Source: a virus
Taxonomy: Duplodnaviria > Heunggongvirae > Uroviricota > Caudoviricetes
DNA: 37,530 nucleotides
Direction: 5' to 3' (one strand)
Virus record (IMG/VR): IMGVR_UViG_2663763220_000005
Part shown: positions 34,373 through 34,985 of the stretch, one piece after another
How the letters are laid out: every line of letters starts with the position of its first letter
How positions within the stretch are numbered: the first letter of the stretch is position 1
Program-made: the position numbers and the translations under genes
The notes under the pieces: generated by a model
The model's database searches: none
What the model was told of the DNA's origin: nothing
Seen by the model: only the letters and a program-made list of their open reading frames with translations

Positions 34373-34579
34373 ATGCACAAAACAGAACCCAAAATCGTCG
34401 CGCCTGGCTACACAGATGAGGAAATTTATGAGTGGATGACAAAGAAGCTGGCAGCTATAAACCAGCTTCGTGAAGTGCTGTCTTATCGACAGGAAACAAT
34501 AGACTCCTTAAAAAAACTGGATCAGGAAATCACGGTTTTATCACAGGATGTTACTTTAGATATTGTGCAGACAAATTAG
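34373..34579 (+). CDS. Small hypothetical protein (68 aa, predicted helical), first gene downstream of the PL-like promoter
   Basis: GAGGAG RBS 7 nt upstream of the ATG at 34373. Confidence 0.5.
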   Translation: MHKTEPKIVAPGYTDEEIYEWMTKKLAAINQLREVLSYRQETIDSLKKLDQEITVLSQDVTLDIVQTN

Positions 34580-34985
34580 GATCCCATTCATTTTCGTCAA
34601 AATCATCAAAGTGATGAATTTGTGATCTCCAGTCTCGATAATCTAAAAATTTCTGGGCGGTTACGCTTATTTTATCAAGTGTGAGTTCATCCTGAATTGA
34701 AAGAAGAAGTTCATCAAATTTCATCTCATTAATCTGTTTTGGCATCCAGTGATGCTTCATCAGAATAAGGTGAACCAGAGCCTTTTTCCCATTCAACTGA
34801 TTATAGGGAGTGCCGAATTTCTTCCGGTGCTCATGTAAGACAAGGTCCAAAAGAGTAAGTAATGTTGCCCTTGATTCAACTTTGCTTATTTCGACTGATG
34901 ACACTACCCCACTGATTTCAATGCCCCGATACTTTCCAACATTTTCACAGTGGGATTTGTACAGCGTATAGATATTACCGGACAT
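34551..34985 (-). CDS. Hypothetical protein (144 aa), AT-rich orphan gene convergent with the early-left operon
   Basis: Uninterrupted ORF with AAGGA RBS; 3' ends overlap the 68-aa gene by 29 nt; direct repeats lie upstream of its start. Confidence 0.55.
   Translation of the reverse strand: MSGNIYTLYKSHCENVGKYRGIEISGVVSSVEISKVESRATLLTLLDLVLHEHRKKFGTPYNQLNGKKALVHLILMKHHWMPKQINEMKFDELLLSIQDELTLDKISVTAQKFLDYRDWRSQIHHFDDFDENEWDPNLSAQYLK

Follow-up and report, generated by a model that had tools for sequence, protein, structure and literature searches.

Why would a temperate phage carry, beside its immunity region, a gene that is read against its own early operon? The question is raised by a gene of 144 amino acids (aa) on the minus strand (34551-34985) of the IMG/VR virus record IMGVR_UViG_2663763220_000005, a stretch of 37,530 nucleotides (nt) that we call the window. 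The original prediction had described this gene as an orphan opposing an early-left operon and as a candidate for a single-gene exclusion determinant not described before. We found it to be the larger member of a two-gene mobile cassette, in which it belongs to the ECs1072 family and converges on a conserved 68-aa partner gene, and which in other prophages also stands head-on in lytic operons. Such an anatomy would suit a moron that is expressed in the lysogen and whose expression and that of the partner exclude each other, via head-on transcription and antisense overlap, a reading to which we assign a probability of about 0.45.

The 144-aa protein and its family

The open reading frame (ORF) at 34551-34985 is a real gene; its product, a soluble, all-alpha protein of about 17 kDa, belongs to the ECs1072 family. 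The ATG is preceded at 9-10 nt by a Shine-Dalgarno sequence (AAGGA), and the gene lies 413 nt beyond the S24 repressor gene. Because it is on the minus strand downstream of a PL-like promoter (Table 1), it opposes the early-left transcript, as had been predicted. Relatives from Salmonella and Klebsiella gave a ratio of non-synonymous to synonymous substitution rates (dN/dS) of 0.07-0.15, indicating purifying selection; the possibility that the ORF is not a gene was rejected on this ratio, on the size of the family and on the confidence of the structural model. The protein is hydrophilic, with a grand average of hydropathy (GRAVY) of -0.47 (-0.50 for the 68-aa protein) and an isoelectric point of 6.4, and has neither a signal peptide nor a membrane segment. 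The gene had been called visibly AT-rich; its G+C content (GC) of 0.379 is indeed below the 0.500 of the window, but the deviation is only moderate, at the 8.7th percentile of all 435-nt segments.

Against the NCBIfam model NF033230 ("ECs1072 family phage-associated protein") the protein scored 157.8 bits (E = 1.7e-46; curated cut-off 70), residues 4-144 matching profile positions 2-142 of 142, and PHROG 5286 (category "unknown function") was matched over residues 1-144 of 144 with E = 1.5e-90. The window protein is a full-length member of this family, of the same length and without any difference. Since both entries are labelled as hypothetical or of unknown function, membership says nothing about the mechanism. 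The gene can no longer be called undescribed, as it is already contained in NCBIfam and PHROGs, though only among hypothetical proteins; and the earlier remark that the translation holds no known domain stands for Pfam, which gave nothing meaningful for the 144-aa protein or for 49 family members, but not for these two collections.

A word-indexed search retrieved only close enterobacterial relatives of the 144-aa protein, and a profile search of 1.84 billion representatives retrieved 76 clusters, nearly all of 145-155 aa. With an alignment of 47 of those clusters, AlphaFold (AF2) yielded an all-alpha model of high confidence (predicted local distance difference test 94.7, predicted template modelling score 0.89), in which a long N-terminal helical hairpin is followed by six shorter helices. 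Near-invariant in the family are L50, R54, L64, G66, A69, H72 and W134, the latter within an acidic C-terminal EWDP motif. Searching phage genomes with tblastn revealed that Salmonella phage ST64B and Klebsiella phages contain homologues with an identity of about 30%; a scan of genome contigs for the family found only three loci, and P0030 and P0017 as queries found nothing in viral contigs.

The remote homology search with a predicted structure, which the original prediction had recommended, brought no significant match in PDB or BFVD, and the family profile had no match among PDB sequences at E up to 10. There was no significant fold match to the HEPN or HD superfamilies, and the family contains neither the Rx4-6H motif nor the HD motif (H..HD..D). 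PADLOC-DB v2 contained no family matching the 144-aa, the 68-aa or the nearby YfdP-like protein at E up to 1.

The convergent partner

The neighbouring 68-aa gene turned out to be a conserved convergent partner with homologues beside very distant relatives of the 144-aa gene, and the terms orphan and single-gene therefore do not apply. As had been noticed, the two genes overlap at their 3' ends, the last 29 nt of the 144-aa gene (34551-34579) being shared. The partner gene has its own Shine-Dalgarno sequence (GAGGAG) upstream and in relatives a dN/dS of 0.15-0.24, indicating purifying selection here as well. Partner proteins have 68-119 aa and family proteins about 145-155 aa. The convergent arrangement with a partner homologue is kept in relatives that are only 22-37% identical, with overlaps of 22-95 nt (L001, L004, L005, L007, L008, L009, L092, L093, L096 and L103).

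The 68-aa protein of the window and the small proteins from cassettes in late operons have in common the motif (E/Q)P-x4-5-G(Y/M)(T/S)xx(E/Q)(L/I)xxW(L/M), followed by a coiled-coil stretch. A hidden Markov model (HMM) built only from the late-slot partners ranked convergent ORFs at the top of the 806 ORFs of the remaining loci (L096, 5.6e-6; window, 6e-5; L100, 2e-3). Conversely, with an HMM built only from partners in the PL slot the first 7 of 413 ORFs were all seven late-slot partners (1.8e-5 to 1e-3), the next ORF following at 0.17. In prophage Sp4 of Escherichia coli O157 Sakai (L104, 19117-19852) an unannotated facing partner ORF continues without a stop for about 317 nt opposite the family gene, far above the 22-95 nt of the other loci.

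The invariant tryptophan of the family stands in WDP, which is often encoded by TGGGATCC(C) (window 34578-34587; L004, L005, L014-L016). Since TGGGATCCCA is a perfect palindrome, the late-slot partner also reads WDP on the other strand. In the window the TAG stop codon of the partner takes the place of that tryptophan codon (TAGGATCCCA).

Head-on placement of a mobile cassette

When the region 34100-35500 was compared by BLASTN with phage SfV, only 34100-34284 and 35055-35500 matched. The two genes thus lie on a segment with limits at 34285 and 35054 that is present in Shigella phage SfIV and absent from SfV; SfV and Ayreon hold other DNA there. This agrees with the earlier description as an accessory gene beside the immunity region. 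The GC of the cassette is 0.399, rising to 0.54-0.57 immediately to the right. With respect to the moron criteria of Juhala and Hendrix, there is presence in one and absence from another of two collinear phages together with a deviating base composition, and an own terminator is represented by consensus matches only, namely the minus-strand terminator-like sites.

Cassettes of this type occur in four slots (Table 1), and in every prophage case the gene of about 145 codons is antisense to the lytic operon and the small gene co-directional with it. In the Q-to-holin slot the phage homologues (ORFs of 144-157 aa) lack annotation and run against all annotated neighbours, and their 3' ends overlap a small gene running with the late operon, e.g., sb50 of ST64B. 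The namesake ECs1072 (re-annotated as ECs_5703) in Sakai Sp4 shares with the window gene an orientation against its lytic operon, and it faces a convergent partner ORF. Neither this conserved architecture of two convergent genes nor its head-on placement in four lytic operons seems to have been described previously.

We found the cassette in 410 of 5426 complete E. coli genomes; genes of this type are also frequent in prophages of Shigella, Salmonella, Klebsiella and Serratia. Public records miss either the family gene (ST64B and Klebsiella phages) or the partner (Sakai Sp4); the family gene is unannotated in ST64B (L004 3281-3715, equal to NC_004313.1 36435-36869) and in KPP5665-2 (L005 3318-3791). 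A chromosomal orphan (L098/L099, 4001-4438) is an intact family member between PhoX-like and DUF1275 genes; its surroundings contain neither phage genes nor a partner, and it may be a relic or have been domesticated.

Transcription signals of the two genes

Two terminator-like sites follow the 144-aa gene on its own strand (Table 1). Because they lie inside and just past the partner gene, the 144-aa transcript would cover much of the partner mRNA, or all of it, in antisense. In the late-slot cassettes L004, L005 and L015 comparable hairpins follow the stop codon at 31-65 nt, and a hairpin like that at 34295-34314 is also present downstream of the L091 homologue.

Upstream of the 144-aa gene are the direct repeats that had been seen before, which on the minus strand read GTTAT(T)CCCCAACAAC. 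Over the block 35001-35047 the window shares 93.6% identity with the upstream region in L091, although the two proteins agree in only about 33% of their residues. An inverted copy of the repeat motif precedes the partner gene, so that both genes carry similar upstream sequence; this could mean shared regulation or be the trace of a duplication. The motif AATCTGGT..CCCCA.CAAC, 17-65 nt before both start codons, gives the cassette near-terminal inverted repeats.

Farther upstream of the 144-aa gene an element is conserved that in seven lineages ends in TGnTATCTT about 32 nt before the ATG, a sequence that would make a good extended -10 promoter, with a weak -35 region. This -10 part gives way, both in the window and in L091, to a 47-nt block that contains the direct repeats. 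The same upstream region can be drawn as two hairpins (88.8% of cells paired in eight sequences), with five pairs changed on both sides, a number reached by 2 of 500 shuffles. A structured 5' leader would thus have modest support from alifold and pair counts, and the conservation is accounted for no less well by an extended -10 promoter; with only eight sequences the two readings are inseparable. The GCCTG-N14-CAGGC palindrome in this element was considered as a LexA box and rejected, since the spacing between CTG and CAG is 14 and not 10.

Proposed role and its alternatives

If the cassette is a lysogen-expressed moron, the repressor would keep PL shut in the lysogen and the 144-aa gene would be transcribed from its own upstream region to the minus-strand terminators inside or just beyond the partner gene, giving an mRNA antisense to that of the partner. 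Upon induction, strong lytic read-through of the cassette would interfere with the antisense gene and express the partner. The outcome would be mutually exclusive expression, with the 144-aa protein made in lysogeny and the partner in lytic growth. The most speculative step is that the 144-aa protein would be a lysogen-phase effector that is unwelcome in the phage's own lytic cycle, whether it excludes other phages, causes abortive infection or modulates the host, and that the partner may be its lytic-phase antagonist.

The 144-aa gene is probably independent of lytic promoters, as originally supposed, and the cassette gene is a good candidate for a lysogen-only function. A detectable signal of ECs1072 in a lysogen follows from its listing among the genes that change at the growth transition of uninduced O157 Sakai (-2.13-fold, microarray) (PMC2241611), the strand of this signal being not firmly fixed; beyond this one expression table no publication on the ECs1072 family was found, and none specific to similar architectures. 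In its widest form, which we regard as doubtful, the proposal is that the ECs1072-family protein and its coiled-coil partner make up a prophage module of two genes that is widespread, has gone unrecognised and brings a new fold. Its larger protein would be a lysogeny-only effector (e.g., against superinfection), placed head-on in a lytic operon, that is silenced by the very induction that makes its cognate antagonist; this would be a self-immunity switch by convergent transcription.

Several observations weigh against the lysogen-expressed moron and this extension of it. In the window the TGnTATCTT -10 sequence is degenerate, and a scan of the minus strand upstream of the 144-aa gene gave no sigma-70 consensus promoter. 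Independent insertions number closer to four than eleven because the PL-slot lineages may share a single insertion. The partner is cut by a premature stop after "...QQLEDWLG" (53 aa) in 31 near-identical Klebsiella prophage loci with an intact family gene, and it is missing in L091, in L010 and beside the chromosomal orphan, and consequently it is not an obligatory antidote. An exclusion or defence role of the 144-aa protein is plausible but unsupported, since there is no PADLOC match, no structural or sequence relative of known function and no publication to draw on.

An alternative is a cassette that regulates the phage's own development and does not act on other phages, be it as an insulator damping leaky lytic read-through or via a protein that tunes the lysis-lysogeny decision or the timing of induction. 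The cassette always lies head-on in a lytic operon, close to PL, PR, PR' or the P2 early promoter; it has minus-strand terminator-like sites within the partner gene, and a motif is common to the upstream regions of both start codons. We nevertheless hold this explanation to be unlikely. Even less probable is a toxin-antitoxin-like addiction or abortive-infection module, in which a 144-aa toxin is neutralised by the small protein or controlled via the antisense overlap. Such a module would agree with the location on prophages, with two genes overlapping at their 3' ends as in some type I systems, and with a few non-significant Foldseek matches to HEPN toxins. However, the genes are convergent and do not form an operon, both proteins are hydrophilic, and there is no Rx4-6H motif and no match to a toxin family. 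The larger gene survives intact beside truncated partners and without any partner, as in the chromosomal orphan, and hence a protein of the 144-aa type is not lethal alone. The cassette differs from type II systems by its convergent genes, by the lack of a Pfam or NCBIfam match to any toxin or antitoxin and by the persistence of the large gene without an intact partner, and from type I systems in that both products are hydrophilic proteins under purifying selection, only the 3' overlap being alike.

Lysogenic conversion, with the 144-aa gene having no part in phage biology and serving host fitness (physiology, stress tolerance or virulence) in the manner of lambda bor, is about as improbable as the toxin-antitoxin module. 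It draws on the classic moron positions of the cassette, on its frequency in E. coli, Shigella, Salmonella, Klebsiella and Serratia and on the retention of the chromosomal orphan copy; the positions include the slot between Q and holin, which is the site of stx and other conversion genes (PMC4104026). Yet the protein has no signal peptide, no membrane segment and no similarity to host-interaction domains, and its strict co-inheritance with a partner in lytic direction would be left unexplained. A lytic-cycle gene for anti-defence or host takeover, read from its own promoter during infection, has in its favour that no repressor-independent promoter was demonstrated in the window and that anti-defence genes are common in early regions such as this one. 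Head-on orientation in four different operons would be odd for such a gene and the array signal came from uninduced Sakai cultures, so that this possibility is the most remote of those considered.

Relation to known systems

The bor gene of phage lambda is a moron transcribed against the surrounding operon. Another slot for morons lies downstream of PR' (PMC4104026). The cassette resembles both in being an extra AT-rich segment on the opposite strand between conserved genes, present in some and absent from other close relatives, with terminator-like sites of its own. It differs in that two convergent genes are involved, the second of which faces in the lytic direction, in that the window gave no consensus promoter for the 144-aa gene, and in that lysogen expression is putative.

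Repressor-adjacent genes for exclusion or abortive infection are rexAB of lambda, stk of 933W and bstA of Salmonella phage BTP1. The 144-aa gene likewise adjoins the immunity region of a temperate enterobacterial phage; their products, however, have no similarity in sequence or fold to the 144-aa protein. Whereas rexAB and stk are co-transcribed with the repressor, the 144-aa gene lies beyond PL and converges on it, and the cassette also occurs in late and P2 early operons, well away from the repressor.

The type I toxin-antitoxin pairs txpA/ratA and bsrG/SR4 have convergent transcripts that overlap at their 3' ends. Such convergent units with overlapping 3' ends on prophages make antisense control plausible for the cassette too, which differs by encoding two conserved hydrophilic proteins instead of a small hydrophobic toxin and an RNA antitoxin.

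Immunity region and neighbouring features

The window is an SfIV/SfV-type lambdoid prophage, of which 33100-36000 is 98.7% identical to Shigella phage SfIV. The promoter at 34178-34205 is taken to be PL; the operator-like repeats that overlap it resemble the OR sites. Because this promoter adjoins the repressor terminator, the 68-aa partner is the first gene of the early-left transcript. An N-like antiterminator was not recognised near it. Other minus-strand ORFs in 34200-37530 lie over the small RNA (sRNA) match described below or antisense to conserved plus-strand genes. The AT-richest 435-nt stretch of the window is around 2311-2745 (GC 0.29). With regard to the premature partner stops listed in Table 1, the partners in L018 and L027 are disrupted too.

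Table 1. Features of the window and of related loci mentioned in the text (coordinates refer to the window unless a locus is named)
Feature	Position or loci	Strand	Remarks
144-aa gene, ECs1072 family	34551..34985	-	ATG-started ORF; predicted fold all-alpha
68-aa partner gene, PHROG 1744	34373..34579	+	acidic coiled-coil protein; convergent with the 144-aa gene
Two-gene mobile cassette, 770 bp	34285..35054		segment without BLAST match in SfV
Terminator-like hairpin with T-run	34444..34469	-	81-107 nt past the 144-aa stop, inside the partner coding region
Stronger terminator-like site	34295..34314	-	8-bp stem, TTTTGTT tail; just beyond the partner start codon
Two direct repeats, 15-16 nt	35001-35015 (GTTGTTGGGGATAAC); 35034-35049 (GTTGTTGGGGAATAAC)	-	17-65 nt upstream of the 144-aa ATG
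Inverted copy of the repeat motif, AATCTGGTCCCCATCAACAAG	34326..34346	+	27-47 nt upstream of the partner ATG; inverted repeats I5, I8
Conserved upstream element	35055..35095	-	GCCTG..CCAC..CAGGC..GGTGG (minus strand); from alignment
Slot 1, repressor/PL to early-left genes	window, L007, L008, L010, L091, L096/L097, L100		
Slot 2, PR operon between cII-like and O-like genes	O157 Sakai prophage Sp4		namesake ECs1072
Slot 3, Q antiterminator to holin	ST64B, KPP5665-2, L092, Serratia L103, 80 IMG/VR loci		
Slot 4, early operon of P2-like prophage between cox and replication genes	L093/L094		
Premature partner stop	L060 and 30 further IMG/VR loci, about 4545-4706	-	same family-protein C-terminus
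cro-like gene		-	first of the region read rightwards
OR-type operators	33379-33446		
S24 repressor gene	33464..34138	+	ORF and domain match
Terminator	34150-34169		directly after the S24 repressor gene
PL-like promoter	34178-34205	+	TTGACA-16-CATAAT, 11/12 sigma-70 matches
Two operator-like repeats	34183-34221	+	overlap the PL-like promoter; repeat families D1, D3, D6 in common with the OR region
STnc100/PasD-type prophage sRNA match	35096..35319	+	Rfam RF02076, 43.4 bits, gathering score 47, E 2.3e-7; divergent from the 144-aa gene
YfdP-like gene	35454..35816	+	conserved part starts at 35454
DUF2303/YfdQ gene	35882..36706	+	

STnc100 is a multi-copy sRNA of lambdoid phages (PMC5331693). The match in the window is placed in the PL leader and not in the usual late-region slot, and its 3' hairpin is a weak match to DicF too. 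A full 108-bit copy of STnc100 lies divergently beside the homologue in Klebsiella phage KPP5665-2. As a third component specific to the cassette this RNA was rejected, as SfV has the region without the cassette; Rfam did not detect it beside the homologues in L007-L010, where short STnc100-like pieces are present. Judged from these comparisons, the STnc100-type RNA is part of the phage backbone and not of the cassette. The SfIV ORF p35 (window 34904-35248, minus strand) and the N-terminal extension of p34 (from 35136) are probably spurious, since both overlie the STnc100-type match.

Between this match and the YfdP-like gene is a 25-nt inverted repeat (35317-35405; 84% complementary, 39-nt spacer). 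In prophages of enterohaemorrhagic E. coli, convergent sRNA pairs have been described beside such inverted-repeat elements (PMC4104026); AsxR and AgvB had no Rfam match in the window.

Significance

The cassette is common in enterobacterial prophages (about 7.6% of complete E. coli genomes) and yet uncharacterised. If the larger protein acts in defence or modulates the host, the known functions encoded by prophages would be extended by a new fold and by a new type of regulatory layout. That the cassette always stands head-on, in four different lytic operons, points to a general way by which a prophage gene may be kept lysogen-specific while being paired with a product made only in the lytic cycle.
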